Shown one piece after another: positions 13,185-30,598 of a stretch of DNA of 64,000 nt. Both the position numbers and the translations under genes were made by a program. This DNA comes from Clostridia bacterium (GTDB taxonomy: Bacteria; Bacillota; Thermoanaerobacteria; Thermoanaerobacterales; Thermoanaerobacteraceae), in assembly GCA_012840485.1 (NCBI GenBank), contig DULG01000088.1, forward strand, positions 12,047 through 76,046, in the 5' to 3' direction. The number at the start of each line of letters is the position of its first letter. Positions within the stretch are counted from its first letter, which is position 1. The notes below the pieces were generated by a model. The model was not told the DNA's origin. It saw nothing but the letters and a program-made list of their open reading frames with translations, and did no database searches.

Positions 13185-13199
13185 TTTATACCTCCATAT

Positions 13200-13910: not shown

Positions 13911-13912
13911 AT

Positions 13913-14671
13913 TTAGACTCTCCTTTCCACTTTAATAGCATTTTTATAAAGAAAATAAAGCAAAACATAGCCTAATAGTGTACCTGACAGCAAAAATACT
14001 ACATAAACATAAATAAGAACAGAACGCAAAACAGGATAATATTGAAAAAACATTGCAAAGTTGTCAATAAACATGTGATAAAGCATTGCAACAACAAAAT
14101 ATATTAAGAGATTAACGAATTTTTTATTAAAAACATACCTGCTAAAGCCCACTCCTATTATGCCTCCCATAATGCCGTGCATTTGAATAGCAAGAAATCT
14201 TTCAAAAACATAAGCAAAACCGACAAATGTTCCTACAGGAAACTGCATTCCGAAAACTCTACCATATTGAGGATTATAAAGCAAAAACATTAAAGACATC
14301 GCTTCACCTATACCATAAGCAAGCCCTGTATATGTAAAAATCGATGTAGAATATTTTAAATCTTTAAATTGTACCATCATATTCTTATCAAGAAAGTATA
14401 CTACAACCAAAACAGCTAATAATTTAGCTAATTCTTCCCAAAAAGCATTATCCGCCTGCACAACTGTAAGCACATACCACAATGAAGTGTTTAAACTTAA
14501 AAGATAGAGTTCCCAGTGTTTTCTCAATAAAAATATTATTTGAAATAAAAAACCAGAAATGAACAAATACACCCACATCCTGTTTTTTATATGTATATTA
14601 CTTTTCCTCAGTGCTATAAATAAGAACGAAAATATTATAATTACATCAACAAGTACCATTACAAAAAACAT
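13913..14671 (-). CDS. PrsW/YhfC-like glutamic-type intramembrane protease
   Basis: FWEELAK, GLAYGIGE, ERFLAIQMH and YHMFID motifs. Confidence 0.7.
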   Translation of the reverse strand: MFFVMVLVDVIIIFSFLFIALRKSNIHIKNRMWVYLFISGFLFQIIFLLRKHWELYLLSLNTSLWYVLTVVQADNAFWEELAKLLAVLVVVYFLDKNMMVQFKDLKYSTSIFTYTGLAYGIGEAMSLMFLLYNPQYGRVFGMQFPVGTFVGFAYVFERFLAIQMHGIMGGIIGVGFSRYVFNKKFVNLLIYFVVAMLYHMFIDNFAMFFQYYPVLRSVLIYVYVVFLLSGTLLGYVLLYFLYKNAIKVERRV

Positions 14672-14901
14672 TTAAAGCACCCCTATCTCATCGTTTTCAT
14701 TTTCTACAACCATAATTTTATACTCTGTGTGAGACAGCAAAGTTATTAGACAAGAAATTTTTTACACAATACTATAAATTCTACAAAATTCCCTAAAATC
14801 CTTCTTTTATTTCCAAACCATAACAAAATTTAACATAGTTTTAACATATCTCTATCAGGTTACCTTCTCACAGTTCTAACTATTTATAATCAGAAAAGGT
14901 A

Positions 14902-15234
14902 CTATTTTCGTATAAAAACATACAATAAAAAAATGTCAAAAAGTAAAAGTATAACCCCTGCTGCAATATCATATGTCCCATGAAAAATTTTCTTTTTTTC
15001 TTTTGCTTGAGGATATTTTATTGCAATATAAGAAAACAACTGCAATACAGGTATAAAAAATATAAATTCCAACTTAGATACAACATAATTTATATTCCCA
15101 AAAGCATCCCTTTGAAGTGGTATACTTTCAGGTAGATACTTATATGCAAAAATATTTATAATAAAGGTTATAACTGGAAACATCCACCCCCACTTATACA
15201 AATATCTCATTACTCTTTTTGACATTTTTAACAT
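14902..15234 (-). CDS. DUF1648-domain membrane protein
   Basis: YLPESIPLQRDAFGNINY resembles the DUF1648 'LPD.IP.HW...G' motif; GGAGG RBS. Confidence 0.7.
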   Translation of the reverse strand: MLKMSKRVMRYLYKWGWMFPVITFIINIFAYKYLPESIPLQRDAFGNINYVVSKLEFIFFIPVLQLFSYIAIKYPQAKEKKKIFHGTYDIAAGVILLLFDIFLLYVFIRK

Positions 15235-15258
15235 CCTCCTCTCAATTCGCCTGCTTTT

Positions 15259-15304
15259 ATTGTAAATTGTGTTAAATATAAAAACTACTATACTTTTGTA
15301 TAGA
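15259..15304 (-). promoter_or_regulatory. Promoter with 18-bp operator ACTATACTTTTGTATAGA (15287-15304) abutting the -35, 17-bp spacer, -10 TACAAT (15259-15264)
   Basis: Same motif and spacing as at 19010 and 29352. Confidence 0.65.
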
Positions 15305-15334
15305 ACAGAGTTGACTTAAACTTGATATTGTATC

Positions 15335-17002
15335 TTATTCAATTTGATAATACCTCCTATTCCCAAAATAAATCAAAAATTTATAAAAAGCAAAAGTAAT
15401 TATTCCTAATCCAATAGCAATATAAGGCATGTAGATTGCAAGCTTTGATATTCTGGTTACCACATTAATTGACAAAATCACAAATAAAATCAATAAAACC
15501 ATAGATATGAGTACATTGATATTTTGCCTCACCACCACCCTTGGATTCTCCCAATTTAACATGGGTATACAAAATTCACAAAACAATCCTATGATAAAAT
15601 AAATGTTCAATATAAAAAAACCTATCATAAAAGCAAGTACAAGATAAATCAGGCTCAATCCTGTTACAAAAAAACTAAATGAACACGTAAGTATGCCAAA
15701 TATAATGCTTAAAATATTACAATGTAGAAGTTTCGCTTTAATGTATTCTTGAGGATTTATAGGCAATGATTTTAGATAATAAAACATCTTCCCTTCTCGT
15801 GATAAAGCAGTTGATGCTATCATATTAAAACCACCGACTAAAACATATCCTAAAGCTATAAGCAGTGTAATAAAATATTTTGCATTTAAATCTTTTTCTA
15901 TATCAGAAACTACTTTTAGTAAATCTGGCATACCTGAATAAAGAGAATAAAGCGAAAGAAAGGGAATAATTAACGTCATAGCGAATCCATAAATAACAAA
16001 TGTCGAATCACGATAAAAAAGTTTTATGTCTCTCTGTAGCAATGCCATAACCTCACTCTGACGTTTAAAGAGCAACCCTTCCATATTATAAACTTTTTGT
16101 TTATTCTTGTTACTTATCTCTTCGCTGCGGGATATTACATCAACTAAACTGCTTGATAATAACTTTAAAATGAGAATAAGACCTATTAATGAAATGAAAA
16201 TGAAGATTAATAAATATTTAAAAGAAATTATCACTTTTTCTGTAATAGCCTTATAAGCAATATTTACTGGATAAAATATTTTTGAAAAATCTACTAACAG
16301 GGAAAGCTTTTCTTTTATAATACTTACACCTGTATTTTTATTTGCTTCAAAATAATTCTGCATCCCTGTAATTTCTTTAAGTAAAATTATAAAGACAATG
16401 TTTATTATAAAAGCAGTTATATTAGCGAACCCTCTCTTATCAAAAAAATATCCTGCTCTTTGTATTAAAACAAAAACAAAAAATTGCAATGCCATTGGAA
16501 TTACAGGTATTAGCACTATAACTACACAAGCAAAAACATAATATGTAAAAGGTTCATTGAAAGTTATACCATTAATAATCAATACTGGCATAAGTGCAAA
16601 TAGTGAAAGCAATAATTGAAATATATATCCTGGAACAAATCTGCTGAGCAAAATTTGCCATGGTTTTAGTGGTAAAGTCATTACGTAACTATTTTCTCTA
16701 CTATTGCTTACTGTTGAAATGTATGAACCCGCTAAGCCAAACGTTAGTAATAAAAGAAATGTAAAATTTAAAAGCCCCTCTATCATCAAATTTTGTTCCC
16801 TAGTTAACGTTAAATTGTAATAGAGAAATTTGTTAATCTGTATATACGCCTTGAATATATTATAAAATAATAATAAAAGTAACCCATATATGAAAAAGTT
16901 TAAATACAGTTTTTCTTTTTCATACTTCCATGAATACTTAAATCCATGAAATCCATATAAGGACTTATAATTATATTTTATTAAAGTCCATAATTGCTTC
17001 AT
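15335..17002 (-). CDS. ABC exporter permease (large, multi-TM)
   Basis: 555 aa; TLPLKP, ALSREGK and SLPINP motifs typical of ABC-2-like permeases. Confidence 0.8.
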   Translation of the reverse strand: MKQLWTLIKYNYKSLYGFHGFKYSWKYEKEKLYLNFFIYGLLLLLFYNIFKAYIQINKFLYYNLTLTREQNLMIEGLLNFTFLLLLTFGLAGSYISTVSNSRENSYVMTLPLKPWQILLSRFVPGYIFQLLLSLFALMPVLIINGITFNEPFTYYVFACVVIVLIPVIPMALQFFVFVLIQRAGYFFDKRGFANITAFIINIVFIILLKEITGMQNYFEANKNTGVSIIKEKLSLLVDFSKIFYPVNIAYKAITEKVIISFKYLLIFIFISLIGLILILKLLSSSLVDVISRSEEISNKNKQKVYNMEGLLFKRQSEVMALLQRDIKLFYRDSTFVIYGFAMTLIIPFLSLYSLYSGMPDLLKVVSDIEKDLNAKYFITLLIALGYVLVGGFNMIASTALSREGKMFYYLKSLPINPQEYIKAKLLHCNILSIIFGILTCSFSFFVTGLSLIYLVLAFMIGFFILNIYFIIGLFCEFCIPMLNWENPRVVVRQNINVLISMVLLILFVILSINVVTRISKLAIYMPYIAIGLGIITFAFYKFLIYFGNRRYYQIE

Positions 17003-17028
17003 GATCCAGTCATCTCCAGAAAAATTTC

Positions 17029-17724
17029 TTATAAATCCTTTTTGTCATCTTTTTTAATTTTTAACTCATTAATAGTCCCCGTATAAAGTATCCTGCCATT
17101 TTTTATAATTGCGATTCTATCGCATATCTCCTCTGCTATCTGCATAATGTGTGTTGTGATAAATACTGTTTTACCTTGCTGGGCTAAACTCCGCATAATC
17201 TCTTTTAAATTTTTGATTGCTTTTGTATCCAGCCCAATCACTGGTTCGTCCATAATTAAAAGCTCCGGTTCATGAATAAGTACTCCTAAAATCAATAATT
17301 TTTGTTTCATTCCATGCGAATAGCTCTCTATTTTCATATTTAAAGCATCATAAATCTCCAGTATTTTACCATATTTTTCAATGTTTGATTTTCTAATTTT
17401 GCTATCTATTTTATATATATCTGATATAAACCTTAAAAACTCTAATCCTGTAAGTTTACTAAATATATCTGGGTTATCTGGTACATATCCAATTTTTTCT
17501 TTTGCTTTAAGAGGTTCTTTAATTACGTCATATCCATTAATTAAAACTTTTCCGCTATCGGGTTTTAATATACCAGTAATAATTTTTACAGTTGTTGTTT
17601 TCCCAGAACCATTTGGACCAAGAAAACCAAAAATTTCACCTTTATGTACTTCAAGGTTTAATGAATCTACAGCCTTTTTATCGCATCCATAGTATGTCTT
17701 TGATACATTTTCTAAAATAAGCAT
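17029..17724 (-). CDS. ABC ATP-binding protein, probably truncated by 10 aa by a premature TAA
   Basis: GPNGSGKTT, YSHGMKQK, IMDEP; reading past the stop gives in-frame EIFLEMTGS then TGA overlapping the next ATG. Confidence 0.85.
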   Translation of the reverse strand: MLILENVSKTYYGCDKKAVDSLNLEVHKGEIFGFLGPNGSGKTTTVKIITGILKPDSGKVLINGYDVIKEPLKAKEKIGYVPDNPDIFSKLTGLEFLRFISDIYKIDSKIRKSNIEKYGKILEIYDALNMKIESYSHGMKQKLLILGVLIHEPELLIMDEPVIGLDTKAIKNLKEIMRSLAQQGKTVFITTHIMQIAEEICDRIAIIKNGRILYTGTINELKIKKDDKKDL

Positions 17725-17742
17725 AAATAGTGCAGCTCCTTA

Positions 17743-18063
17743 TTAGAAAATTTTTAAATTTATTAAGATGATTACTATATCAACAATTAATACAAATAGA
17801 TTACCAAATATAGAATATAAGTCAGTATAAAGAGTTGTGTTTTTCCCTTTAGTTTTGAGTTTCACATACCCATAAACAAATAATTGCATCAAGGGAATAA
17901 TAAAAACAAATATTGTTTTAGAGACAGTATTTGAAATACTCCCATCAAAGTGCCACTGAATAGCAACTGTCTGTGGCAATGCTTTATAAAAAATGATGTT
18001 TATGATAAATGTGAAAACAGCAAATAACCAATTATTTTTACCAAAAAAATTTATTGCTCTCAT
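17743..18063 (-). CDS. DUF1648-domain membrane protein
   Basis: ALPQTVAIQWHFDGS motif; paralogous to 14902-15234. Confidence 0.75.
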   Translation of the reverse strand: MRAINFFGKNNWLFAVFTFIINIIFYKALPQTVAIQWHFDGSISNTVSKTIFVFIIPLMQLFVYGYVKLKTKGKNTTLYTDLYSIFGNLFVLIVDIVIILINLKIF

Positions 18064-18099
18064 AAAATTTTTCTCCCTTCTTATATTACGTTTTTCTTT

Positions 18100-18960
18100 T
18101 CATTTAACTTTTTTCTTTTCATACAACAAGCTAAATATAAGAACTACAAATATCATTAGAATTATCGTTATAAATATAACAAAATTTGATGCATGTATTT
18201 TATATATGTTGTAATATAATGTATCAAATATCACTAATTCGAAAAGGGAATATATAAGTATTAAAAGTACTGGTAAAAATTTACTTACCATAATCTGCGA
18301 TATGCAATAATACGGCAGAAAAATCCCAATCCATCCCAATATCAATATAATTTCATCTACCACTATTGCTATAGTTTTCTCAACAACCCACTCATCCGGG
18401 TTTCCCGTCAATCCAAAGTGAATATACACCTGGGGTGGTAATTTGACATATAAAATTAAATTAATTACTGTAGATATAGCAAAAATTAACACCGACAAAT
18501 AGATAACATATTTTTTTTCAGTTTTAATGGCATTTTTTGAATTTATATGATTTAAATCTCCTACTTCTTCTACTTTATAACTTCTATTACTATTATAACC
18601 TCGCCTTACCCCATTTTCATCAAATATTTTGTGCAAATGTTTTTCTGTAAGATAAATTATAGATATAAATAAAGGAATTATATAAATACCAAAGGATATT
18701 CCCATTATAGCTGAAGATACATTAAAAATGAACATTATTACATTAATTACAAATAACAATATTGAAAACAAAATGAATAAATCGGCAGAGTATCTATTTG
18801 CTTCTTTGAAAACATCTTCATTTTTTGTAGCAAATTCAGTTCTATAACCATAAAAATAATTTATTTTTTTAGGAGGAAAATATTTTAATACCACCCCTAT
18901 TAATAAAAAGAATAACGGAACACCAAAAGTAAGGAATAATCTACCTATAAAGTCTTCCAT
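18100..18960 (-). CDS. SdpI/YfhL-family immunity protein fused to a DUF1648 domain
   Basis: PPKKINYFYGYRT..A....F.EANRY (SdpI motif) plus LPPQVYIHFGLTGNPD (DUF1648). Confidence 0.8.
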   Translation of the reverse strand: MEDFIGRLFLTFGVPLFFLLIGVVLKYFPPKKINYFYGYRTEFATKNEDVFKEANRYSADLFILFSILLFVINVIMFIFNVSSAIMGISFGIYIIPLFISIIYLTEKHLHKIFDENGVRRGYNSNRSYKVEEVGDLNHINSKNAIKTEKKYVIYLSVLIFAISTVINLILYVKLPPQVYIHFGLTGNPDEWVVEKTIAIVVDEIILILGWIGIFLPYYCISQIMVSKFLPVLLILIYSLFELVIFDTLYYNIYKIHASNFVIFITIILMIFVVLIFSLLYEKKKVK

Positions 18961-18981
18961 ATATTCTCACCTCCGGTATTA

Positions 18982-19027
18982 ATTGTAGTACTTATTTCCT
19001 ATAAAGTCTACTATACTTTTGTATAGT
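18982..19027 (-). promoter_or_regulatory. Promoter with perfect operator ACTATACTTTTGTATAGT (19010-19027), -35 TAGACT, 17-bp spacer, -10 TACAAT
   Basis: Read directly; upstream of the SdpI gene RBS GGAGGTGA. Confidence 0.7.
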
Positions 19028-19059
19028 AATGCTATACAAAAATTCCCCTTTATGTGTTT

Positions 19060-19838
19060 TTACTCCTTATCTATTAAACCTAATTTAACAGCTTTTGCTA
19101 TAGCTTCTTGTATTTTTTGTAAGCTTTTCCATTATTTTCTTTTTGTGATATTTAACTGTAATGGGTTTAATTTTAAGAAATTTCGCGATAACTATTTCTT
19201 TATATCCCTTAGCTTGCAATTGCAATATTTCTATTGGTTTCCCTTTTAAATCCATTTTTATTTTTTCAATTTCTTTTTCCTTCATTTTCTCTTCGTATTC
19301 ATTTATAATTTTTTCAGACAGCAGTTTTATTACAATAGTCATCTCATCTGCAATTTTTTTATCAATTGTTGATATATCCAAATATCCTATTATCTTTTCT
19401 CCGTTTGTTGCTAATGGCATTGCTATACAATACCATTTTCTAAAAATATCCCAGTAATGCTCCTGTGGTTTTAAACAAACTGCTCTTTTTAATCTCATTG
19501 CCATTGAAATTGCATTTGTACCGCAGCTTTCTTCTTTAAAGGATATCCCCAATCGAAAGCCAGACTGCCTTATGTATTCTTCTTCCTTTATATTACATTT
19601 TACATCTATTAAATATCTTTCTTCATCAGTCAGTAAAAAAAGATATTGTCTTTCTGCCTAATCATTTTCTATACTTCTATTAAAAGCATCTATGAGTACC
19701 TTGTTCTGTGCTATTTTTAATCCTAAATCCCTCTAGATTTAGAATTATTAGTGGTGTAGTTATTGAAGGGTCAATACCCATTTCAGTACAACGTTTATAA
19801 GAAGAAAGCCATTCCCCTTGCGGACATAAAAAATCCAT
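19060..19838 (-). pseudogene. GAF (AcoR-like) plus LuxR-HTH regulator, frameshifted near both ends; paralog of 29440-30237
   Basis: MDFLCPQGEWLSSYKRCTEMGIDPSITTPL start, early frameshift and stops, GISFKEESCGTNAISMAMRLKR core, second frameshift before QEAIAKAVKLGLID*. Confidence 0.85.
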
Positions 19839-20057
19839 TTTTAATACCTCTAAAATGATATAAACGTTTTTAAAAATTTATTAATTCCTTAAACATTATA
19901 CAACATTTAAAGTTAAATTTGTGGATTTTGAAACGAAAGTGTCATTTTGGGGAACGAAAATGCATTTTTTACTTAATATCTTACAATTATGGGACTATTG
20001 TTATCGTAAAGTTTTTAAAAATATATCAGTAACATCTAAATTCGTTATCGGACAATA

Positions 20058-20129
20058 ATCGAGTAGAGAGCCACTTTACAGCGGCTCCCTCTCACAGAAC
20101 CGGACGTGCGCTATTAACGCATCCGGCTC
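20058..20129 (-). mobile_element. Group II intron 3' remnant (domains V and VI only)
   Basis: GAGCCGGATGCG-TTAATA-GCGCACGTCCGGTTC (DV with AGC triad), then a DVI stem with bulged A ending CTACTCGAT; no RT ORF and no 5' domains. Confidence 0.85.
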
Positions 20130-20173
20130 TTCATATCATCTTTTACTTTTATCGTAGCTATGACACAAACAGG

Positions 20174-20224
20174 GGGGACGGTTCCTTTTGTCCGAAAAAA
20201 ATTCAGACAGAAGGAACCGTCCCC
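20174..20224. repeat. REP-like hairpin GGGGACGGTTCCTTTTGTC ... GACAGAAGGAACCGTCCCC
   Basis: 19-bp near-perfect inverted repeat; family members at 8255, 38461, 39914, 47247, 49319. Confidence 0.85.
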
Positions 20225-20279
20225 TTTGTCTGATTATATTTTTTCTTGCCTCTTCCCCTATTGTCTAAAGTACTCAAAG

Positions 20280-21473
20280 TCACAGCTCTTTTTCTAATCC
20301 TATTGCCCTTTTAAAAGGTATACTGGAAATTAAAGCTGTAATTAAAGATAAGAAAAGTGCAGCATAAAGACCCTTTTTGTCACTTAAGACTCCAAAGGAG
20401 TAAATACATAGAATTGTAGAAACACTAATAAACAAACTATATATTGAAATAATCGTTGCACGCTCTGAAGAAGGTATTAACTTATTAAAATAAGACATAA
20501 AAATCGGAGTGTGTGCAGAATATACTGCTGTATAAATAATATAAGGTATAAACGAATACTTGGGAATCGCATACATCATAAATATAAACAATGCAGATGT
20601 AATACTGACAATCATTAGTGTGCGAGCTGCCCCTTTAAATCTTTCAGCTATCCTGTCAGCATAACGGGGCACAAAAATACTAAGTACCATCGTTAATGCT
20701 AAAATAATACCAAACAATTCTACAGGTATGCCTGCCCGTTCGAAATAGGGCTGCCACAACATTGACATGATTCCCGATGAAAAGAAAAAGAAAAAAGCTC
20801 CAATTGTAATAAATAATAAAATCTCATGTTTAAATAGATACACAGTTCCTTTAGCAATTTTATTAAAATACTCTCTGTAACTGTATTCGTCCGTTTTTTT
20901 CTCTAATTTAGCTTCTTTGCCCGCTAAAAATACGTAAATAAAAACCAAAAAAATCCCTATACCTTCTATTAGCCAGATTTCTCTAAAGATATTATAACGT
21001 ACTAAAACGCTGCCTCCTAAAAATCCTATCGTACTACCTAAATAGTTAAAACTTGTAAGACGTCCCCAGTATTTTGTCAGGTCTATTTCTTTTTGACCCA
21101 AAAGAAACGAATCAGCAAACCAAGATTCAAAGGCTCCAGAATTAAGAGTTGCTCCAACTCCTGATAAGAAATATAAAAATAATAAAACTGTAAAAGAGGT
21201 GTTGAAATATATCCCAATAGAAGTTAAACTGCCAATCAATAAAGATAAAAGAACAGAAAATTTACGGCTATATGTATCAGCAAAAGCACCCGTAGGTATT
21301 TCGAATAATATGACCGCTATGTGGTTTATTATTATGAGGAGTGAAATTTGTGAAAAATCTAAATTAATTTTATTAAAATATATTACCCAAAATGGTGCCA
21401 TTAAAGATGTAAAAAAACTTGAAAACAATGTTACCGTCAAGAAAAATCGTACATTCCTTTTTAAATTTTGCAT
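20280..21473 (-). CDS. MFS transporter (probable exporter)
   Basis: 12-TM pattern; FEIPTGAFADTYSRK motif A and SGAFESW. Confidence 0.88.
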   Translation of the reverse strand: MQNLKRNVRFFLTVTLFSSFFTSLMAPFWVIYFNKINLDFSQISLLIIINHIAVILFEIPTGAFADTYSRKFSVLLSLLIGSLTSIGIYFNTSFTVLLFLYFLSGVGATLNSGAFESWFADSFLLGQKEIDLTKYWGRLTSFNYLGSTIGFLGGSVLVRYNIFREIWLIEGIGIFLVFIYVFLAGKEAKLEKKTDEYSYREYFNKIAKGTVYLFKHEILLFITIGAFFFFFSSGIMSMLWQPYFERAGIPVELFGIILALTMVLSIFVPRYADRIAERFKGAARTLMIVSITSALFIFMMYAIPKYSFIPYIIYTAVYSAHTPIFMSYFNKLIPSSERATIISIYSLFISVSTILCIYSFGVLSDKKGLYAALFLSLITALISSIPFKRAIGLEKEL

Positions 21474-22459
21474 TTATTTAAATCCTCCTCTGAAGGAATA
21501 AATTTACCAAATGTTAGGAAGTTTTCAGCAATACAATAATTCGTAGAACAGAAGCGAGCAAATTCACATTTGGTACACAGAAATTTTTTGCTTAATCTTT
21601 TGGAATAACTTCTTATCCTTTTTGCTTTCTCACTATTCCATATTTCAAAAATATCTTGTGATTTTATGTTGCCTAGAATTATTTTATCATCTACTCTTTG
21701 CTCGAAAATCCGGCATGGAAGTACATTCCCATCAGGTTGAATTTCAAAACCGACGTTTATATTGCAACCTGGAACCTTTTGGTCTTCAATAGACTTGGGT
21801 ACATCTCCCATTATTTGGTACAATGTTTGACAATTGTTGCCCCCAATCCCAAGGTTTCAAGCGTGCAAATTTAACTGAAGTAACTCCCAAATCGCTTAAC
21901 AATTTTACAATTTCTTCTATTTGCATCATATTATGTTTTCCGTAAGTTACTTCAACTTCCACTTGAAATGCATTTGAAAATTTTTTCAAATTTGAAATTG
22001 AAGAAAAAACCTTTTTAAATGTCCCCTCTCCCCTGATAAAATCATGAGTCTCGCTATTACTTCCTTCTATTGATAAACTATAACTTACTACGTGATAAGA
22101 ATTCATTATCTCAATCTTTTCTTTCGATAAATTTATACCATTAGTAACTAGTTCAATAGGGATTTTGTGTTGATTAAATATTTCCATAATTTTAAAAAAA
22201 TCCTTTCTAACTGTTGGTTCGCCACCATTAAAATCTCGTATTTCTCCATTTGTTCAGCCAATTTTTTTATATCATCTAATTCTAATTCTTTTATTTGGTA
22301 ATGTCTTAAACTCCCAACCAAACAGTGTTTACATTTTAAATTACATTTATAAGTTAATAGTAGTGATAATACTAACGGTGATTCGAATTCATAAATGTGG
22401 TCAATACTATAGTTTGTATTATTTCCTTCTCTGTTCTCTCCAATAATTATTTTCTGCAA
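21461..22459 (-). pseudogene. Radical SAM/SPASM enzyme (PqqE/MftC-like architecture) split by two frameshifts
   Basis: CNLKCKHC in the first piece; GGEPTVRKD in the shifted frame; VTNG; SPASM C..C..CTKCEFARFCSTNYC in the last piece. Confidence 0.85.
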
Positions 22460-22553
22460 TGGCTTACTAATTGCGCTGCTTATGGAATTCTCGAGATATT
22501 TTTTATTAATTTATACCATATATATTCCCACAAAATCTTATCATATCTAATTC

Positions 22554-23324
22554 TCAATACTCATTCCATATCCCTTCAACTTTACTTTTATTGTAAATAT
22601 ATCTAAAAAAGGATATACCAATGATAAAATATAAAAAGCTATTTATGCATAACAAAAACATCTGACTGAAAAATACAGGCTGCTTGTCAATTAAACTCTG
22701 TGAAATTAATATGCCCTGTGTTAAAGGCAAACTTTTGCTAATAATTTGAAATAAGATTGGCATGGAATTAATATCAATTATCGTCCCCGTAAAAAATAAT
22801 AAAATGTAAGATAAAATAGTCTCAAAAGAAGCCGTTTTAGTAAATCTTAAAGTCAGTCCTCCTAATAATAAACTAAAGCCCAATAGTCCTATTAACGTAA
22901 TTATTAAAATGGGTATTATTTTTATATTAAAAACTATATTTATGGGTAAGGTTAATTTGATAACTATAAATAATACCATAACTTTGATAAAAGTAATTGC
23001 AAGCCATGTTAGTGTTTTTATTAAACATATTACTTCTAAAGATACAGGCTTTAGAAGCAACTGTTCTAATGTACCTACTTGTTTTTCAAAGGATATCGAT
23101 ACAGATACCTCACTTATTATGTTAGCCGCGAGAAACCAATATAAAAAGCCAATGTAATAACTGTCTTTTACAGCAGCATAATTTCTAAATTCCAAAAAGA
23201 ATCCTGCAAAAAATATATAAGTTACAATCATATTTACTATATGATCGGGGTAATAAGTTTTTACTTCGATCATATACTTAGATAATTCCGCTTTTATAAT
23301 ATTAAACATCTTCAAAGCTGTCAC
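22554..23324 (-). CDS. ABC-2 type permease
   Basis: FEKQVGTLEQLLLKP motif, 6 TM, LPLTQGI. Confidence 0.85.
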   Translation of the reverse strand: MTALKMFNIIKAELSKYMIEVKTYYPDHIVNMIVTYIFFAGFFLEFRNYAAVKDSYYIGFLYWFLAANIISEVSVSISFEKQVGTLEQLLLKPVSLEVICLIKTLTWLAITFIKVMVLFIVIKLTLPINIVFNIKIIPILIITLIGLLGFSLLLGGLTLRFTKTASFETILSYILLFFTGTIIDINSMPILFQIISKSLPLTQGILISQSLIDKQPVFFSQMFLLCINSFLYFIIGISFFRYIYNKSKVEGIWNEY

Positions 23325-24261
23325 TTCCTAACTTCAAAAATTTGTACATTATATCTTCAAGGCTATCTTGGCTTTTAGAAATATGAGTAACATAAATATT
23401 TCTTTTTACCATATCACCTAAAAAGCTATTTATAAGCCTATTACTATCAATATAAACTTCTATTTCAGTAATATCATTTTCCCTGCGCACCACATTAACT
23501 GTATCAAAATACTTTTTTATTTCTGCATCATCTAAATTTCTTTCCACTCTTATTAAATATTTATTGCCTGAATATTTATTTATCAACTTATCTACTGTAT
23601 CCAAAAATTGTATTTTCCCTTCACCTAATATCATCACTCTATCAGCTACTTTTTCAACGACATCCATTTGATGTGACGTAATAATAACTGTCACACCCTC
23701 CTCCTTTGACAAATGTTTTATTTTTTCAATCATGTCCATTTTAGACACCACATCAAGCCCTAAAGTTGGCTCATCTAAAAACAATATCTTTGGTTCATGG
23801 AGTAATGAGATTATAATTGATAATTTTTGCTGCATCCCTCTTGAAAAATTCCCTACTTTTTTATCTTTATCCTCATATAGCCCAAAAAATTTTAATAATT
23901 CCTCTCCTCTTTCTCTAATTTCTTTTTCTTTTAACCCCATCAATCTTCCGAAATAAAGTATATTTTCATAAGCCGACAAATACCAATAAATATTTCTATT
24001 ACCTTCTAACACAACTCCGATTTCAGTGTAGTAATCCTTTCCTATAGTTGTAATTTCCATATTTTTATATAAAATTTTCCCTTTTGAAGGAGTTAATAAA
24101 TTAACCATCAATTTTATCAATGTAGTTTTACCTGCGCCATTTTCTCCTAATATGCTGAAAATTTCTCCTTTATCAACATGAAAACTTACTGAATCTAAAA
24201 CCAATTGCTTTTTTCTATTTGTCTTATATGTTTTGGATAGCTCTTTTATTTCTAATATCAT
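23302..24261 (-). CDS. ABC transporter ATP-binding protein
   Basis: GENGAGKTT, FSRGMQQK, FLDEPT and C-terminal SLEDIMY. Confidence 0.92.
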   Translation of the reverse strand: MILEIKELSKTYKTNRKKQLVLDSVSFHVDKGEIFSILGENGAGKTTLIKLMVNLLTPSKGKILYKNMEITTIGKDYYTEIGVVLEGNRNIYWYLSAYENILYFGRLMGLKEKEIRERGEELLKFFGLYEDKDKKVGNFSRGMQQKLSIIISLLHEPKILFLDEPTLGLDVVSKMDMIEKIKHLSKEEGVTVIITSHQMDVVEKVADRVMILGEGKIQFLDTVDKLINKYSGNKYLIRVERNLDDAEIKKYFDTVNVVRRENDITEIEVYIDSNRLINSFLGDMVKRNIYVTHISKSQDSLEDIMYKFLKLGSDSFEDV

Positions 24262-24482
24262 ACTAATCTTTTTTCCTCCATTCTGTTTGGAGCTTTAACA
24301 TAAGTATAGCAAAAATAACAGTAATATTACTTTATAATAAATAATATTATGACAAAACCAAAAAGTAATATCACAGAATTTAATTACTTTAACAAGCAGA
24401 TATTGATTTTAAGCTACTACAGGTAGAATTTGGTATGTTGTTATATTTGAGTCTAACTTCCTTGAAAACTCTCAACTACCAT

Positions 24483-25757
24483 TTATTTATTTCCCTTGGC
24501 ACTATTTTTATAGTTCTCTACAATTAATGGAATATCATTTTCATCCAATTCTTGTTTAGGACATATATTACCGTAAACATTCTTTTTATATACACACCAT
24601 CCTCCGCAAATAATTTTATAATCACAATCAGTACATTCAGAATTCATATTTTCTTTTTCTATAAATTGACTAACTCTGGAATAATAATAATGGCTTCCAT
24701 ATTCAGATATATGTGAAATTAAGTATTGTGTATTACCAATTCCAGATATACACTTATAGAGATATCCATCCGGACTAATTATAAATACGTTGTCCCTAAA
24801 AAAACTACATGTAAAATAACTATTTCTGTAGAAAGGCACATAATTATTTCCATACTTTAAACCTATTTTATGTGCATTTAACCAAGCTTTATTTATGTCG
24901 TTTTTATAAGCATATTTAAAAGAATTCTTTCTAGACTCAAATACTATACTAAAAAACACGGGATAATTTATTCTTTTTTTTCTTAATTCTATAAACAATT
25001 CTTCAATATGATTTATATTCAACAAATTAATGTTGCAGTTTATTACAATATTGATTGATTCATTAAACTCCTTAGAAATAGCTTCTAGATTATTTATTAT
25101 CTTATTGTAACTTCCACTGTTGTCCATTCCAATTCTCAACTGATCATGGATTTTTTGTGGTCCATCTAATGTTACTTGTAGCAAATCTATTTTCATATTT
25201 ATGAGTTCATTAACTGTTTTTTTGTTAAGTAAAGTCCCATTCGTAATAATCGATTTGATAATTTTGAGAGATTTTCCTTCATTCGATATTCCATTAATAA
25301 TATTTTTAATTTTTCTCTTATGTAACAAAGGTTCTCCTCCAATAAAACATAGTTCAATTTGCTCTGGACTTGTCTTTTTAACAATTCCTTTAATAAATTT
25401 AATTACATCTTTTTCTGTTTCCTCAGTCATAACCTTTTTACTTTTTATTTCCCTTTGATAACAATAAACACATCTTAAATTACAGTTGTAATTTAAATGA
25501 ATTATGAAAGAAACTGAACGACTCGAATACTTAATTTTATTCATAACCATTTTAACAAGTTTTTCTTCATCTATTTCGCTAAATTGTAAATATAATTCTT
25601 TCCTTAAATATTGTAATTCTTCTTGGTTCAATTTTTTAATAAATATTTCTACATCTTCTTTAGAAGTAGGTAAAGATATTAAAGAATTAGTAATTGAATT
25701 ATACAAAAGAGTTTTTTTATCATCTACAGGTATTTTAATTACATATTTGCTTAACAA
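24483..25757 (-). CDS. Radical SAM/SPASM peptide maturase with an N-terminal extension (probable RRE)
   Basis: CNLRCVYC, GGEPLL, TNG, QVTLDG; SPASM Cys set C..C..CTDCDYKIICGGWC..C; about 90-aa N-terminal extension. Confidence 0.9.
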   Translation of the reverse strand: MLSKYVIKIPVDDKKTLLYNSITNSLISLPTSKEDVEIFIKKLNQEELQYLRKELYLQFSEIDEEKLVKMVMNKIKYSSRSVSFIIHLNYNCNLRCVYCYQREIKSKKVMTEETEKDVIKFIKGIVKKTSPEQIELCFIGGEPLLHKRKIKNIINGISNEGKSLKIIKSIITNGTLLNKKTVNELINMKIDLLQVTLDGPQKIHDQLRIGMDNSGSYNKIINNLEAISKEFNESINIVINCNINLLNINHIEELFIELRKKRINYPVFFSIVFESRKNSFKYAYKNDINKAWLNAHKIGLKYGNNYVPFYRNSYFTCSFFRDNVFIISPDGYLYKCISGIGNTQYLISHISEYGSHYYYSRVSQFIEKENMNSECTDCDYKIICGGWCVYKKNVYGNICPKQELDENDIPLIVENYKNSAKGNK

Positions 25758-25785
25758 GATTTTTTACCTCCTATTCTTGATTATT

Positions 25786-27072
25786 TTATGTACAGAGTTG
25801 AATTATACCTTCAACTATTCCATTTTGGATTTCTTCTTTTTTGCAGAGAACTTTATTAATATCATATTTGTTCTCTATTTTTTCTCTTTTACACCCCCCC
25901 ATACAAAAAGGTAAAAATGTACACGTCTTACATCTTTCTTCATATTCTATTTCATCTTCATCATAACTATACAACTTTAATAGAATCATGTCTGTATCAT
26001 CCTTAATGTTTCCTATAATAAATTTATCACTACCGATTCCGTATATACACTTACTTATATTCCCGTTGGGTTCTATTATAATCGAATTCTTTCTATTAGC
26101 TAAACAAGGTCCATATCCTATAAATTCATCATTCTCTTTGTTATAACCATATATTTTCAAACTCTTTAATAAAGTTTTATATATTATAGCTAATTCATCA
26201 GGTTTTAGTTTATGCACTCTCGAAATATTATTTTCAGTACTTATCAAAGAATTAAACTTTATATAAACTTTGTTTCTGTATTTTTTAGGAAATATATCTA
26301 AAAATTTAATTATACTTCTGTAATTATATTTATCAAAATTCATATTGATTACAATCTCAAACCCATTATCTATTAACATCAAAAGATTATTATATATCTT
26401 TTTAAACGTTCCAGAGCCATCATGTAAAAATCTTCTTTCGTCATGGCATCTTTCAATTCCATCAATAGTTATCTGAAAACTGTTAATATTTAATTTTTTG
26501 AAGTTTTCAATCATCTTTTCATCAATTAAATATCCATTAGTCACTATGTTAACCAGACTTCTAATTCCAAAATTATTTTCTATGTAACATAAAAACATAC
26601 AAACTTTTTCTATTGTCTTCATTTCTAGCAATGGTTCCCCGCCAAAAAAGTTAAAATCTATAACACGACACCTACTTTTAATAATAACATTCTCTAAAAA
26701 TTGCAGCATTTTGTCTAGTTCCATGTTTTTATAATTTTTTTCTTTTTTAAAACCTTCATAACAATATGGACATTTAAAATTACAATTGTATGTCGTTAAA
26801 AATGTTACAATAAAATATTCATTTTGCCATTTTTGCTTATTTAACCAATACTTATACAATAAAAATTCATCTATATCATCATCCACTATAAACCCTAATT
26901 CACATAAATCTTTATATTTTTTTTTGGCAGTATGATAATTTATTTTTTTTATATTTTCTTTAAGCTGGTAGTATTCTCCTCTTTCTATAGAGATAATTGA
27001 TCTCGTTAATGTATTAAAAATTATAACGTTATTATCTAAAGTCTTCTCATAATTAAAAACCGAAAATTTCAT
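25786..27072 (-). CDS. Radical SAM/SPASM peptide maturase with an N-terminal extension (probable RRE)
   Basis: CNFKCPYC, GGEPLL, TNG, QITIDG; SPASM C..C..CKTCTFLPFCMGGC..C; AGGAGG RBS. Confidence 0.9.
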   Translation of the reverse strand: MKFSVFNYEKTLDNNVIIFNTLTRSIISIERGEYYQLKENIKKINYHTAKKKYKDLCELGFIVDDDIDEFLLYKYWLNKQKWQNEYFIVTFLTTYNCNFKCPYCYEGFKKEKNYKNMELDKMLQFLENVIIKSRCRVIDFNFFGGEPLLEMKTIEKVCMFLCYIENNFGIRSLVNIVTNGYLIDEKMIENFKKLNINSFQITIDGIERCHDERRFLHDGSGTFKKIYNNLLMLIDNGFEIVINMNFDKYNYRSIIKFLDIFPKKYRNKVYIKFNSLISTENNISRVHKLKPDELAIIYKTLLKSLKIYGYNKENDEFIGYGPCLANRKNSIIIEPNGNISKCIYGIGSDKFIIGNIKDDTDMILLKLYSYDEDEIEYEERCKTCTFLPFCMGGCKREKIENKYDINKVLCKKEEIQNGIVEGIIQLCT

Positions 27073-27261
27073 ATTTAATTTTCTCCTCCTATGTTATCTT
27101 CTATTTTCTCTCATTATTTAGCTTTTTTAATTTTTCTATCATAATAAGGTAGATATCATTAAAGAATATACCAGGTATTTCTATTATCATTTTATTCACT
27201 GGATCTCTGCCTTTAATTCTTTTTTTATCTGCTATTATGCTCTTTAAATTATAATGTAAAC

Positions 27262-27798
27262 TTATTTTAACTTTTTCAAAATTTGTATAAAATCTAGTAC
27301 GTTTTCAACTTTAATTATTCTATCATCATCTATTACTAAATCTGTCAATTTAGGCACTAAAAAATAATCATACTGTCTTTCTTTAAAAATACTAAACTTT
27401 TCTTTCATCCCACCAACTTCTAAAACATTTCCGTATAAATCTATTTCACCAGTTGCTAAAATATTTTTACCTTCTACATATTTCCGCATGTTCTCATCCA
27501 AACAACTATACATAACAGACATAAAAATTCCTAACCCTGCAGAAGTTCCATCTTTATAAATACTCCCATTAGTAAAATGTACATGAAAATCGAATTCATT
27601 AATTATTTTTTTATCTATTTTTAACAAAATATAGTTGCTTTTTATTACTGAAAGTGCAACTTGTACCATTTCCGCAATTGCATTACCTACAACTCCTGTA
27701 ACCAAGCAGTTACCGTTGCCATTCTCAAACCTCATACATTGCACCGAAAAACAATCAACAATACCTTCATTATTTATGGCAGGTACATCTATTCTCAT
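27262..27798 (-). CDS. Stand-alone Lon protease proteolytic (S16) domain, no AAA+ module
   Basis: HVHFTNGSIYKDGTSAG (catalytic Ser) and TGEIDLYGNVLEVGGMKEK (catalytic Lys) align to E. coli Lon PKDGPSAG / TGEITLRG..IGGLKEK; GAGGAG RBS. Confidence 0.88.
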   Translation of the reverse strand: MRIDVPAINNEGIVDCFSVQCMRFENGNGNCLVTGVVGNAIAEMVQVALSVIKSNYILLKIDKKIINEFDFHVHFTNGSIYKDGTSAGLGIFMSVMYSCLDENMRKYVEGKNILATGEIDLYGNVLEVGGMKEKFSIFKERQYDYFLVPKLTDLVIDDDRIIKVENVLDFIQILKKLK

Positions 27799-28043
27799 TT
27801 TTCTCCTCTCCCATTAGTATAAACAATAAATTGGAAATAAGTAATTAATAAAAAATATGATTACTTTCTTATTTTTCTTATTTTCCCTTTACATATATTT
27901 CGTTTTATTAATGTGATATAGTATAGTACAGTTAAAATTTGGAGATATTTCTTTAATCAATATATTTTTACATATTTTTTGTGCCGCTATTCTTATTTCG
28001 TTTTGAAAATCCCTGTTGAAATCAATATTTCTTTATATTTACA

Positions 28044-28089
28044 AGCATAGCATAATAAGTATTGTCTACAGTACTTATTATGCTATGCT
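28044..28089 (-). terminator. 18-bp perfect stem-loop downstream of the precursor peptide gene (terminator or mRNA-stabilising hairpin)
   Basis: AGCATAGCATAATAAGTA (28044-28061) / TACTTATTATGCTATGCT (28072-28089). Confidence 0.75.
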
Positions 28090-28101
28090 ATTTAATGAAT
28101 T

Positions 28102-28233
28102 TTAATCAATAGTTAAACGCTGTGTTTTTCTGCAACATGAATAAATCAAATCAGCATTTTCGATCTTGTGTCCAGTTCTAATAACTTTAACTTTTTTTAA
28201 TTCATTAGATTGCTTCTCCTGTTTTTGAGTCAT
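28102..28233 (-). CDS. Putative RiPP precursor peptide, 43 aa: MTQKQEKQSNELKKVKVIRTGHKIENADLIYSCCRKTQRLTID
   Basis: Manual translation (below the ORF-track cutoff); strong AGGAGGTG RBS 6 nt before ATG; first gene of the rSAM operon; followed by a strong hairpin. Confidence 0.8.
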   Translation of the reverse strand: MTQKQEKQSNELKKVKVIRTGHKIENADLIYSCCRKTQRLTID

Positions 28234-28388
28234 CGCTTACACCTCCTTCTTTTTTAAATATTTGGTCTTTGCAGAATCCTAAAATCCTTATGTATTGAAA
28301 GATTCTGCTGTATATTTTCAAAGGAATTCCTCCACTTTTTTTGAATTTATAGAAAGAGACAAATCCCCAAAAAAAGGGAGGAACTCCT

Positions 28389-28835
28389 ATGAAAACTGAA
28401 GCTAAATAAACACTATTTTTTGCCGATATTTACGATAATGTTTAAACCTTTTTCTGAAGAAGATAAATTTAAGTTTATTAAACTCTTTGATTACTTTATT
28501 GATTTTTCTAAACTTACTCCATCTTCTTTCTATAACCATTATTATTCTCAATTTGACGTCATAGAGATTTTTATCTTGAATCTATGCTTACTGCTTTGTT
28601 TATTCAAAAAATCCTTTCTATTTCTACTTTTCAACTCCGTGCTTATGTCTTTAAACTCTTTAAAGAATTAAGAGAACTTTATGGCTTTAAAAGAGTCCCT
28701 CATCCTTCCAATTCCCTAGATTTAAATCCATTTTCCTCAAAGATTTGGAGAATTTCTTCAATAATCTTGTTAATTTAACTGAATCTATTTGTCAGCCTAT
28801 TAATCCTTCACTTTCCAATATACTCTTGGTTTAAT
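28389..28835 (+). mobile_element. Degraded IS transposase, N-terminal part (ISNCY/IS1182-like; family uncertain)
   Basis: Stitched frames give MKTEAK*..SFYNHYYSQF..RDFYLESMLTALFIQKILSIST..KELRELYGFKRVPHPSQFPRFKSIFLKDLENFFNNLVNLTESIC; several stops and frameshifts; GCAGAATC/GATTCTGC inverted repeat near 28271-28308. Confidence 0.7.
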
Positions 28836-29323
28836 TATTATGCAGAACTTGGTGCCTTCGAATATCCTCTATTTTTGAAAAAGTTTTTGGCTTGGTAATT
28901 TGTTCTTATAGTTTGAATATACCTGACTTTCTATTTCCCAGTGTAAGATTGACTTTTATTTTTCTATGTTTAAGAATTTAGACTTGTTTTTAATACCGGA
29001 ATCTCTTTATGTTGCTATTGTAGTTGTTAAGCTAAGTAAATTTTGTAAGTTTAAGTTTTTTATTAATCTGATGCAATTGACTTAATTTTCACTAAATTTA
29101 GTTTGGGCCACTTTTCAATATTTGACTTTCAGAGGATATTTATGATTTTTTAGCTACTCTTTTGTCTTTTCTTATCCCTGACTATTTTCTTTGTGTTTAA
29201 TTGTCAGTTTTGATTATTATATATTTTATATCATACATACTTTGTTTTTTAATTCTGATTATTTTAATTTACTTTGCATAATCATAACATTTCTGACATT
29301 TCTGCACTTATTTTTTTATTTTC

Positions 29324-29369
29324 ACTATACAATGAAACTAATAGCATGTCTACTATATTTTAGTATAGT
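29324..29369 (-). promoter_or_regulatory. Promoter with operator ACTATATTTTAGTATAGT (29352-29369), -35 TAGACA, 17-bp spacer, -10 TATAGT, pointing to the RiPP cluster
   Basis: Same geometry as 19010 and 15287. Confidence 0.65.
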
Positions 29370-29413
29370 TTTTATTACATTTCCAGTTAATGTTTACATA
29401 AATAAGCAAAAAA

Positions 29414-29431
29414 ACTATACAAAAGTATAGT
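29414..29431. promoter_or_regulatory. Perfect palindromic operator copy ACTATACAAAAGTATAGT
   Basis: Reverse complement of the 19010-19027 copy; 62 bp from the 29352 copy. Confidence 0.65.
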
Positions 29432-29439
29432 CTCAAATT

Positions 29440-30237
29440 TTAATCCACATCTACCAGTCCCAACTTAATTGCCTTTATTACTGCCTCTTTAGTGTTTTTT
29501 ACTCCAAGTTTTTCTACTATCTTTCTTTTGTGATATTTCACAGTCACAACCCCTATCCCAAGAGCTTCTGCTATGTCTGATTCTCTGTATCCTTTTGCCT
29601 CTAATTCCAGTATTTTTATCTGGCTGTCATTTAATTTTATCTTTATCTCATTTATCTCTTTTTCTTTTACTATCTTTTCATATTCACTCGCTATTTTTTC
29701 AGCCAGCAGTTTTATTACCATTGATACTTCACTTGTGATTTTTTTGTCAATAGTTGATATATCCACATAGCCTACTATTTCCCCGTTTTCTACTATTATA
29801 GGTGAAGCAATGCAGTGCCATTTTTTAAATATGTAACAGTAGTGTTCCTGAGGTCTTACATACACTACCCTTTTTAATCTCATTGCCATTGAAATCGCAT
29901 TTGTCCCACAGCTTTCTTCTCTAAAGGATATTCCCCGTTCAAAGCCTGAATCTTTTATACATTTTTTCCCTTTTGTACTGCATTTTACATCCATCAAATA
30001 TCCTTCAATATCAGTAAGCAAAAATAGATACTCGCCTTTTACCCACTCCTCTTCTACACTCATATGAAAAGCTTCTATGAGTTCTTTATTTTTATGTACT
30101 TTCTTTTGCAAATCTTCTGGATTTAATATCACCAATGGCAGAGTTATTGAAGTGTCAATACCAATTTCTATACATTGTTTATATGAAAAACTTAGTTCTT
30201 CTTGCGGACATGAAAAATTCATTTTTATACCCTCCAA
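29440..30237 (-). CDS. Transcriptional regulator: AcoR-like GAF domain plus C-terminal LuxR HTH
   Basis: GISFREESCGTNAISMA, HYCYIFKKWHCIASPI (GAF); LNDSQIKILELEAKGYRESDIAEALGIGVVTVKYH..KIVEKLGVKN (LuxR HTH). Confidence 0.9.
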   Translation of the reverse strand: MEGIKMNFSCPQEELSFSYKQCIEIGIDTSITLPLVILNPEDLQKKVHKNKELIEAFHMSVEEEWVKGEYLFLLTDIEGYLMDVKCSTKGKKCIKDSGFERGISFREESCGTNAISMAMRLKRVVYVRPQEHYCYIFKKWHCIASPIIVENGEIVGYVDISTIDKKITSEVSMVIKLLAEKIASEYEKIVKEKEINEIKIKLNDSQIKILELEAKGYRESDIAEALGIGVVTVKYHKRKIVEKLGVKNTKEAVIKAIKLGLVDVD

Positions 30238-30325
30238 AAAGATTGAACCGTTTTTTAATTATTATACAATATTTAGAACAAGATTTGTGAAATAATAGTA
30301 CGATGCACAATAAGGATCGCACATT

Positions 30326-30583
30326 TTACCTATGCCACCACATACCCAGTCCAAAGGACAATAATAAATTGAACATCCCATTACTGGCCATAAGATCTAC
30401 TTGTACAGAATCTGGTTTTACAATATCTTTAGAATTCCTAGAATTTAGTGTTTCAATTAAATACTCCATTAGATCACACCCTTTCGGAATATGCAATCTT
30501 TTTATCAATAGTTGATTACCATATTCCCATTTTTTATTATTATAGGCGAGGTAATAAAAATGAGGAGAATAATCTCCTCCCAT
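30326..30583 (-). CDS. Small hypothetical ORF or remnant
   Basis: 85-aa ORF directly after glgA; no motif recognised. Confidence 0.3.
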   Translation of the reverse strand: MGGDYSPHFYYLAYNNKKWEYGNQLLIKRLHIPKGCDLMEYLIETLNSRNSKDIVKPDSVQVDLMASNGMFNLLLSFGLGMWWHR

Positions 30584-30598
30584 TAATATAACACTGCT

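Follow-up and report, generated by a model that had tools for sequence, protein, structure and literature searches.

A conserved 18-bp palindrome at predicted promoters as the candidate operator of a GAF-like/LuxR regulator family in Thermoanaerobacteraceae and relatives

The lux box is centred at -42.5 and the class II sites of CRP at -41.5, and LuxR-type proteins bound at such a position recruit RNA polymerase, the arrangement called class II activation. Here we consider a candidate for this kind of control in a 64,000-nucleotide stretch (the window) of the genome of a Clostridia bacterium of the family Thermoanaerobacteraceae (assembly GCA_012840485.1), in which an 18-bp palindrome, ACTATAC-N4-GTATAGT, recurs at predicted promoters and beside the gene of a protein, luxR1, that joins a GAF-like domain to a LuxR/GerE helix-turn-helix (HTH). 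In Bacillus subtilis, the dimer of ComA, an activator of the quorum response, has as its site an inverted repeat of the 6-4-6 type; this lies upstream of where RNA polymerase binds, and there is often another site close by (PMC4797271). A survey of Gram-positive LuxR homologues merely counts proteins of the GAF-like plus LuxR architecture (PMC5539150). From the comparison of sequences described below, we think it probable that the palindrome is the operator of the GAF-like/LuxR regulator, and that the regulator would activate promoters from it.

The window is part of one contig (C76) of a draft genome of 2,654,849 bp with 33.8% G+C. The original prediction had reported four copies of the palindrome, and all four are there, at 15287-15304 (one mismatch), 19010-19027 (none), 29352-29369 (one) and 29414-29431 (none). 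One hundred dinucleotide-preserving shuffles of the window gave a mean of 0.21 matches at up to two mismatches, and never four. A scan of all 2,654,849 bp, a check proposed together with the prediction, found the motif to be anything but frequent, the four window copies being the only sites with at most one mismatch; when scored with a weight matrix trained on 30 distinct related sites, the four boxes reach 19.4-25.2 bits and the next best match in the genome 16.4. The description of the operator as undescribed holds as far as our literature search reached: no paper on the motif or on the targets of the regulator family was found, the papers in which the two half-site strings co-occur are all unrelated, most of them dealing with let-7 microRNA and DNA barcodes, and no paper joined Thermoanaerobacter, LuxR and radical SAM, the addition of ‘bacteriocin’ returning irrelevant matches only. 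The elements needed for the argument are the following.

29440-30222, minus strand: luxR1, 260 aa from the ATG at 30222, with a GAF-like (DhaR-type) domain and a LuxR/GerE HTH
29414-29431, minus strand: Box A, ACTATACTTTTGTATAGT on this strand; together with its T7 run, an element of 29407-29431
29352-29369, minus strand: Box B, the box of P3, ACTATACTAAAATATAGT on this strand; centre-to-centre distance to Box A 62 bp
29324-29352, minus strand: predicted sigma-A promoter P3, with -35 TAGACA (29352-29347), a 17-nt spacer and -10 TATAGT (29329-29324)
19060-19838, minus strand: luxR2, a pseudogene paralogue of luxR1
19010-19027, minus strand: the box of P2, with the half-site remnant of a former Box A (GTATAGC, 19031-19037) 3 nt upstream; together an element of 19010-19037
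18982-19010, minus strand: predicted promoter P2 (TAGACT, 17 nt, TACAAT); the ATG at 18960, of an SdpI/DUF1648 gene, lies 21 nt past the -10
15287-15304, minus strand: the box of P1, TCTATACAAAAGTATAGT on this strand, a single internal box
15259-15287, minus strand: predicted promoter P1, with a poor -35 (TAGTTT), 17 nt and -10 TACAAT

At three of the boxes, the final T of the palindrome is at the same time the first base of a -35 hexamer (TAGTTT, TAGACT and TAGACA at P1, P2 and P3), which is followed by exactly 17 nt and a -10 hexamer (TACAAT, TACAAT and TATAGT), all on the minus strand, so that the promoter layout proposed earlier is borne out at each of them. Since the box ends at the first -35 base, placing the -10 hexamer at -12 to -7 with a 17-nt spacer predicts a box spanning -52 to -35 with its centre at about -43.5. 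The one-base overlap and the spacer layout are invariant in about 35 distinct related contexts, and the -10 stays good throughout, while the -35 ranges over TAGACA, TGGACA, TAGACT, TAGAAA, TGGATT, TAGTTT, TTTAAA and TGGAAA. Single boxes precede a poor -35 (TAGTTT, TGGATT, TAGAAA or TGGAAA) paired with a good -10; most Box B promoters carry TAGACA. The original prediction had called all three -35 hexamers of the window weak, which is fair for TAGTTT at P1 but not for TAGACA, because the latter matches TTGACA at five of six positions. The fourth copy, Box A, has no promoter; it begins 9 nt past the luxR1 stop codon and is followed by TTTTTTT.

The same pair of boxes is found 3' of luxR1 homologues whose protein identity ranges from 89% to 48%, in Thermoanaerobacter, Caldanaerobacter, Thermoanaerobacterium, Aceticella and a genome of another family (G035). 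The order of this cassette is stop codon, about 8-12 nt, Box A, a run of five to seven T, a spacer, Box B, 17 nt and -10, with Box A reading ACTATAC(TTTT/TTTA/CTTT)GTATAGT, Box B reading ACTATAC(AAAG/TAAA/AAAA)(G/A)TATAGT followed by (A/G)GACA, and the -10 reading TA(A/T/C)AAT. In an alignment of ten such regions, the conserved blocks are the boxes, the T-run, GACA and the -10, and the remaining intergenic DNA has diverged; beside proteins that have diverged to about 50% identity the boxes are still identical at 17-18 of 18 positions. In a sample of 40 relatives, the motif rises above a reversed-sequence control mainly in the genomes that have close luxR1 homologues. The regulator family is expanded in the bacterial family of the window; the matches number 2-28 per genome, and many are fragments. 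Linkage was counted in five complete genomes, which hold 46 sites with at most one mismatch: 33 are found downstream of a homologue, no more than 100 bp from its 3' end, and two within 360 bp, six are single boxes within 7 kb of a homologue, four make up two orphan cassettes whose regulator gene has been lost, and one is unlinked. The orphan Box A/Box B cassettes (both in G008: L048 2327-2382 and L041 19908-19963) retain only the last few bases of the regulator gene, and the open reading frame (ORF) preceding one of them combines IS110-type transposase domains with the end of an FtsX-like permease. Conservation of the cassette in at least four named genera while its flanks diverge supports the view that ACTATAC-N4-GTATAGT is, as had been supposed, a functional element under selection and tied to the GAF-like/LuxR regulators.

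The regulator itself had been placed at 29440-30237 with a TTG start; homologues and a 260-aa database entry make the ATG at 30222 the most likely start instead. Its C-terminal part (residues 206-256) matches the LuxR/GerE HTH family (Pfam PF00196) with E 1.7e-10 and 40.8 bits against a cut-off of 23.5, which places it in this family, and in profile searches against the Protein Data Bank (PDB) the HTH is closest in sequence to VraR, LiaR, NarL and ComA, types of protein that bind inverted repeats as dimers, with GerE also matched. The autoinducer-binding domain PF03472 gave no Pfam match in luxR1 even at E values up to 10; because this defining domain is absent, luxR1 is a member of the LuxR/GerE HTH superfamily and not of the LuxR family of acyl-homoserine lactone receptors. 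The N-terminal domain matches the N-terminal part of the NCBIfam DhaR model (residues 43-203, E 5e-17), and the family profile matches DhaR(N) crystal structures (PDB 4lrx, E 1.3e-4). An AlphaFold2 model from a 20-sequence alignment has a mean pLDDT (predicted local distance difference test score) of 90, and its best PDB match by Foldseek is again DhaR(N) 4lrx (E 1.5e-10, template-modelling (TM) scores 0.60/0.53, 193 columns), followed by full-length CodY chains and the isolated CodY GAF domain 2b18 (E 2e-4); whole-protein matches to RhlR, QscR and SdiA have TM scores of 0.30-0.35. According to this model, the N-terminal domain has a GAF-like fold of the DhaR/AcoR type. The label ‘GAF-LuxR’ of the original prediction is thus apt for the DhaR-type GAF-like fold and the LuxR HTH, but the Pfam GAF family proper (PF01590) stays below threshold on luxR1 (16.0 bits against 22.4, E 0.019). 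Some homologues carry a precomputed PF01590 match, and PF26965 is precomputed on the N-terminal domain of homologues. Cys17, His127, Cys129 and Cys137 do not vary among 20 members of the family (EHYC...W.C), and may form a metal or redox site in the GAF-like domain. The family is small, with about 180 clusters at 50% identity found at E up to 1e-30 against 1.84 billion representatives, and among the best 150 matches listed most are about 250-290 aa long.

By tblastn, luxR1 is the only intact family copy in the genome, the other match being merely a 57-residue HTH-only stretch of 42% identity, and luxR1 is therefore the only candidate cognate regulator there. The box at 19010 sits behind luxR2, which is about 70% identical to luxR1 over the coding part (by eye from the alignment; mean column identity 82%) and has been inactivated by three lesions: the reading frame shifts near the N-terminus, a TGG codon has become the stop codon TAG, and 5 nt are missing ahead of the last helix; with this paralogue dead, only one regulator copy can act. 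A scan of the region upstream of luxR1 found neither a box nor clustered half-sites, and classical autoregulation from a site in that position thus has no support.

The strongest argument against hitch-hiking or a purely structural element, and for the adjacent protein as the predicted cognate binder, comes from boxes that change together with the recognition helix. In a subfamily of 45-46% identity, the helix reads NTVNYHKRNI instead of VTVKYHKRKI, and the box (L035 4794-4811; L047, at about 450230 of G019) reads ACTACAG-AAAA-ATGTAGT, followed by AGAAA, 17-18 nt and TAAAAT. Behind a metagenomic homologue of 35% identity, the box is ACTACCT-AAAA-GTGTAGT, its last T opening TTTAAA, with 17 nt and TAATAT; behind one of 40% identity it is ACTATCT-AAAT-GAATAGT, with TGGAAA, 17 nt and TAAATT. 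What is kept across these variants is the outer ACTA...TAGT, the A/T-rich centre and the one-base -35 overlap, and it is the inner half-site bases that vary with the protein. The boxes of the two more distant homologues lie in L059 (3798-3815) and L058 (3906-3923). No box can be recognised downstream of one member of the 46% subfamily (G007:1330637; L046), and Thermoanaerobacterium paralogues of 30% identity have no obvious shared palindrome.

All genes of the region lie on the minus strand, in the order, from upstream to downstream, luxR1, RiPP-type genes (for peptides made on the ribosome and modified after translation), luxR2, the SdpI/DUF1648/ABC genes and a DUF1648 gene.

28102-28233, minus strand: candidate precursor peptide of 43 aa, with a GGAGG ribosome-binding site
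22554-27798, minus strand: RiPP-type genes for a Lon_C-like protease, two radical SAM/SPASM maturases, an ABC ATPase and an ABC-2 permease
15335-18960, minus strand: an SdpI+DUF1648 protein, a DUF1648 protein, an ABC ATPase and a 555-aa ABC permease (by Pfam), a putative immunity/export operon
14902-15234, minus strand: DUF1648 membrane protein (Pfam DUF1648, E 3.8e-9), the first gene behind P1

The immunity role of these membrane and ABC proteins is a putative one, suggested by their domains. The 43-aa candidate precursor matches no Pfam or NCBIfam family, and a strong hairpin (28045-28088, -25.5 kcal/mol) lies 3' of its gene. A third radical SAM/SPASM gene at 21461-22459 (minus strand), broken into three ORFs and probably a pseudogene, has near-identical (97%) fragments in G007 and G008; an MFS transporter gene stands between it and luxR2, and between the MFS gene and luxR2 lies an apparent remnant of a group II intron (domain V/VI, Rfam RF00029, 50.3 bits, 20058-20131, minus strand). 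This was the sole match in an Rfam scan of 13000-31000, which gave no riboswitch or leader. Past the DUF1648 gene of 14902-15234 follow a 252-aa membrane protein, a DUF3108 protein and further ABC genes.

Paralogous cassettes in related genomes lead into genes of a similar kind. In G007, G008 and G011, a cassette is followed by genes for a PqqD-domain protein, a radical SAM protein, DUF1648 and an ABC ATPase and permease, and in G008 (L041 3534-10690; C1:371533-378690) luxR, Box A and Box B directly precede genes for a SagC-like protein, a SagB dehydrogenase, a CPBP protease, ABC proteins and SagD/YcaO, a set that marks a thiazole/oxazole-type cluster. Other cassettes lead to a CAAX/CPBP protease, an anti-sigma-like membrane protein or small secreted proteins. 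The orthologues of the window's DUF1648-ABC genes in G008 and G011 follow PqqD/radical-SAM genes behind a luxR-box cassette and therefore share box-driven operons with RiPP maturases; the orthologue of the SdpI+DUF1648 gene is in the same kind of operon in G007, and single boxes also precede the orthologous DUF1648 genes of G007 and G008. A small ORF between the Box B promoter and the PqqD/radical SAM genes of G007 (L038 4975-5196, plus strand; internal start MTYVKPTIQTLGSKNISLNG...) could encode a precursor peptide. The regulon joining a RiPP cluster and immunity genes that was originally proposed is thus supported at the level of the family, by the shared box-driven operons and the DUF1648, SdpI and ABC genes behind boxes, and is weak for the RiPP genes of the window itself.

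Putting these observations together, we propose the following model, of which binding, direction of control, signal and co-transcription of the RiPP genes are all inferred parts. A luxR1 dimer (29440-30222) would bind each 7-4-7 palindrome, ACTATAC-(A/T)4-GTATAGT, and, when placed at about -43.5 on Box B and the boxes of P1 and P2, would recruit RNA polymerase by class II activation. Reception of a signal by the GAF-like domain would let luxR1 switch on three promoters: the one behind its own gene, which historically would have led into the RiPP/ABC cluster, that of the SdpI/DUF1648/ABC operon, and that of the downstream DUF1648 operon. Box A would serve as another binding site and, as RNA, would form a weak hairpin with a U-run that partly insulates the operon from read-through.

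The double role of Box A in this model needs some care. The free energy of its RNA hairpin with the U7 run is -9.9 kcal/mol at 37°C but shrinks to -2.5 kcal/mol when computed for 65°C and to -1.2 for 70°C, its stem has few G-C pairs, and it was missed by a terminator scan; the two higher temperatures are to be judged against the thermophilic range in which this bacterial group usually grows. At such temperatures Box A could be a leaky terminator at most. Since its base sequence, and not merely its pairing, matches that of Box B, Box A is most likely a second binding site of the regulator. Boxes acting purely as terminators were considered and rejected, since the U-run is at Box A only and the Box A stem is marginal at growth temperature.

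Several observations weigh against the proposed activation or parts of it, and they are best considered together with the alternatives. The same regulator and operator might work in the opposite direction, with a repressor, or a ligand-released repressor such as the LuxR-type EsaR, bound from -52 to -35 and blocking polymerase at strong promoters, Box A helping through cooperativity or looping. The near-consensus TAGACA-17-TA(T/A/C)AAT of most Box B promoters might fire without an activator and equally fits repression, two operators per cassette are a common layout for repressors, and certain genomes without the regulator have the box on a perfect TTGACA promoter. Yet the box never lies over the spacer or the -10, its geometry is fixed to one base in about 35 contexts and in diverged subfamilies, as is typical of activator-polymerase contacts, and the poor -35 hexamers at single boxes would be weak if unaided. 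Box A and Box B lie 62 bp apart, centre to centre, in cassettes of the Thermoanaerobacter type, against 38-39 bp for the Thermoanaerobacterium/Aceticella type and 33 bp for G035, so the helical phasing of the two is not conserved among lineages; this argues against strict face-of-helix contact between proteins on the two boxes, a difficulty for our model as well as for a looping repressor. Because the geometry is invariant to the base, because the -35 varies beside a good -10 and because the -35 is poor at single boxes, activation is somewhat favoured, judging by box position and the variable -35, and we consider repression by the same protein unlikely.

The genomes just mentioned belong to another family (group g9), have no GAF-LuxR homologue and carry an identical box on TTGACA or TTAACA, 17 nt and TATAGT, at these places:

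L050 4436-4453 and 6504-6521, L051 3720-3737, L052 3660-3677: g9 boxes, in genomes G029, G033 and G030

The site is syntenic in the three regions, after arginine biosynthesis genes (identified from sequence) and before an unannotated membrane-protein gene, and the LuxR-type proteins of these genomes are all response regulators of the ordinary two-component kind, with genes at distant loci. Either the box is read there by another HTH protein, or it is a relic whose -35 became consensus. Owing to these boxes, with their same -35 overlap, we keep a small probability for the possibility that some other, unlinked regulator, such as a response regulator of the NarL type, reads the box and that the promoter cassette merely travels with the GAF-LuxR genes, to which the orphan cassettes would also conform. 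Against it stand the shift of the box sequence together with the recognition helix of the adjacent paralogue, the position of 33 of the 46 sites directly 3' of a homologue, and the fact that the sole other match to luxR1 in the genome is the 57-residue HTH-only stretch of 42% identity. Finally, the palindromes might not serve as operators at all, but be terminator hairpins or what is left of a repeated mobile cassette, maintained through recent duplication; Box A indeed presents a hairpin and T-run directly past a stop codon, in an island rich in pseudogenes, insertion-sequence and intron remnants and rearrangements. However, a T-run is missing at Box B and at the single boxes, which also fold poorly, the Box A stem reaches just -2.5 kcal/mol at 65°C, the boxes remain identical at 17-18 of 18 positions at about 50% protein identity while their flanks have diverged, and it is the base sequence, beyond the pairing, that is conserved, so that we give this explanation hardly any credence.

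The same caution applies to the reach of P3. Boxes had been placed upstream of the DUF1648 gene, the SdpI operon and the RiPP locus, and the first two placements stand, but P3 is separated from the putative precursor gene by 1.09 kb (28234-29323) of DNA with no long ORF and with repeated mobile-element fragments: 524 bp of it are 86% identical to the contig ends C56 and C52, copies also occur at C41 and C34, and 29010-29290 is similar to sequence from the 3' end of a DDE transposase gene in G007 and from just past that gene. A small terminator-like hairpin with a T-run (28364-28379, minus strand) lies between P3 and the precursor gene as well. The cluster of Lon_C protease and RiPP genes (22554-28233) was not found in the 25 related genomes searched. 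In G008, past the equivalent promoter, a deletion has joined the counterpart of window position 29021 directly to that of 23565, within the ABC ATPase gene, and this junction makes it probable that the ancestor shared with G008 had the RiPP/ABC block behind a P3-type promoter. Nonetheless, the link between P3 and the RiPP genes of the window, which presupposes their co-transcription, is a weak one.

Going further than the activator model with luxR1 on its boxes, one may imagine that the GAF-like/LuxR paralogues are intracellular receptors for the mature modified peptides, or intermediates, of their own clusters, in which case the shared box would create a cross-talking autoinduction network that co-induces RiPP clusters and immunity transporters, with Box A, as operator and leaky terminator, coupling occupancy to read-through. 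We regard this extension as rather doubtful.

Irrespective of such details, the analysis puts forward a predicted regulator with its operator for a family that comprises about 180 protein clusters and has no characterised member. The sequence tag of box, -35 overlap, 17 nt and -10 can serve to spot operons for RiPPs, bacteriocins and immunity in Thermoanaerobacter and Thermoanaerobacterium genomes and could help to wake silent clusters, and, after identification of the ligand that the sensor domain binds, the system might provide inducible promoter parts for thermophilic production strains. It is a regulon prediction of a familiar type, and leaves the understanding of LuxR-type regulation unchanged.

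How the proposed system relates to described ones may be summarized as follows. With quorum-sensing activators such as LuxR, TraR and LasR it shares a C-terminal LuxR/GerE HTH behind an N-terminal ligand-sensing domain, an 18-20-bp dyad site at or overlapping the -35 and the two-domain fold that Foldseek picks up in RhlR, QscR and SdiA, and the centre predicted here at -43.5 may be set beside the -42.5 of the lux box; unlike them, luxR1 has a DhaR-type GAF-like sensor in place of the autoinducer-binding domain, its hosts are Gram-positive thermophiles, and the operator pair is 3' of the regulator gene. ComA, which the HTH of luxR1 matches by sequence, likewise binds upstream of the polymerase site, to an inverted repeat whose halves are 4 nt apart, but it carries a receiver domain and is a response regulator that is phosphorylated, with TTGCGG and not ACTATAC as its half-site and with other targets. 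VraR and LiaR, response regulators for cell-envelope stress, have the HTH closest by sequence among solved structures (E 1e-10) and regulate membrane and ABC-type protection genes, as would luxR1, whereas they carry a receiver domain where luxR1 has its GAF-like domain and are driven by histidine kinases. DhaR and AcoR provide the best sequence and fold match for residues of about 40-200, but they continue with PAS, AAA+ and a Fis-type HTH at sigma-54 promoters, while the sensor of luxR1 is joined to a LuxR HTH by one long helix. CodY, recovered by Foldseek, has the same succession of GAF sensor, long helix and DNA-binding domain, with an HTH of another class (winged), a role as a global repressor and a different motif.

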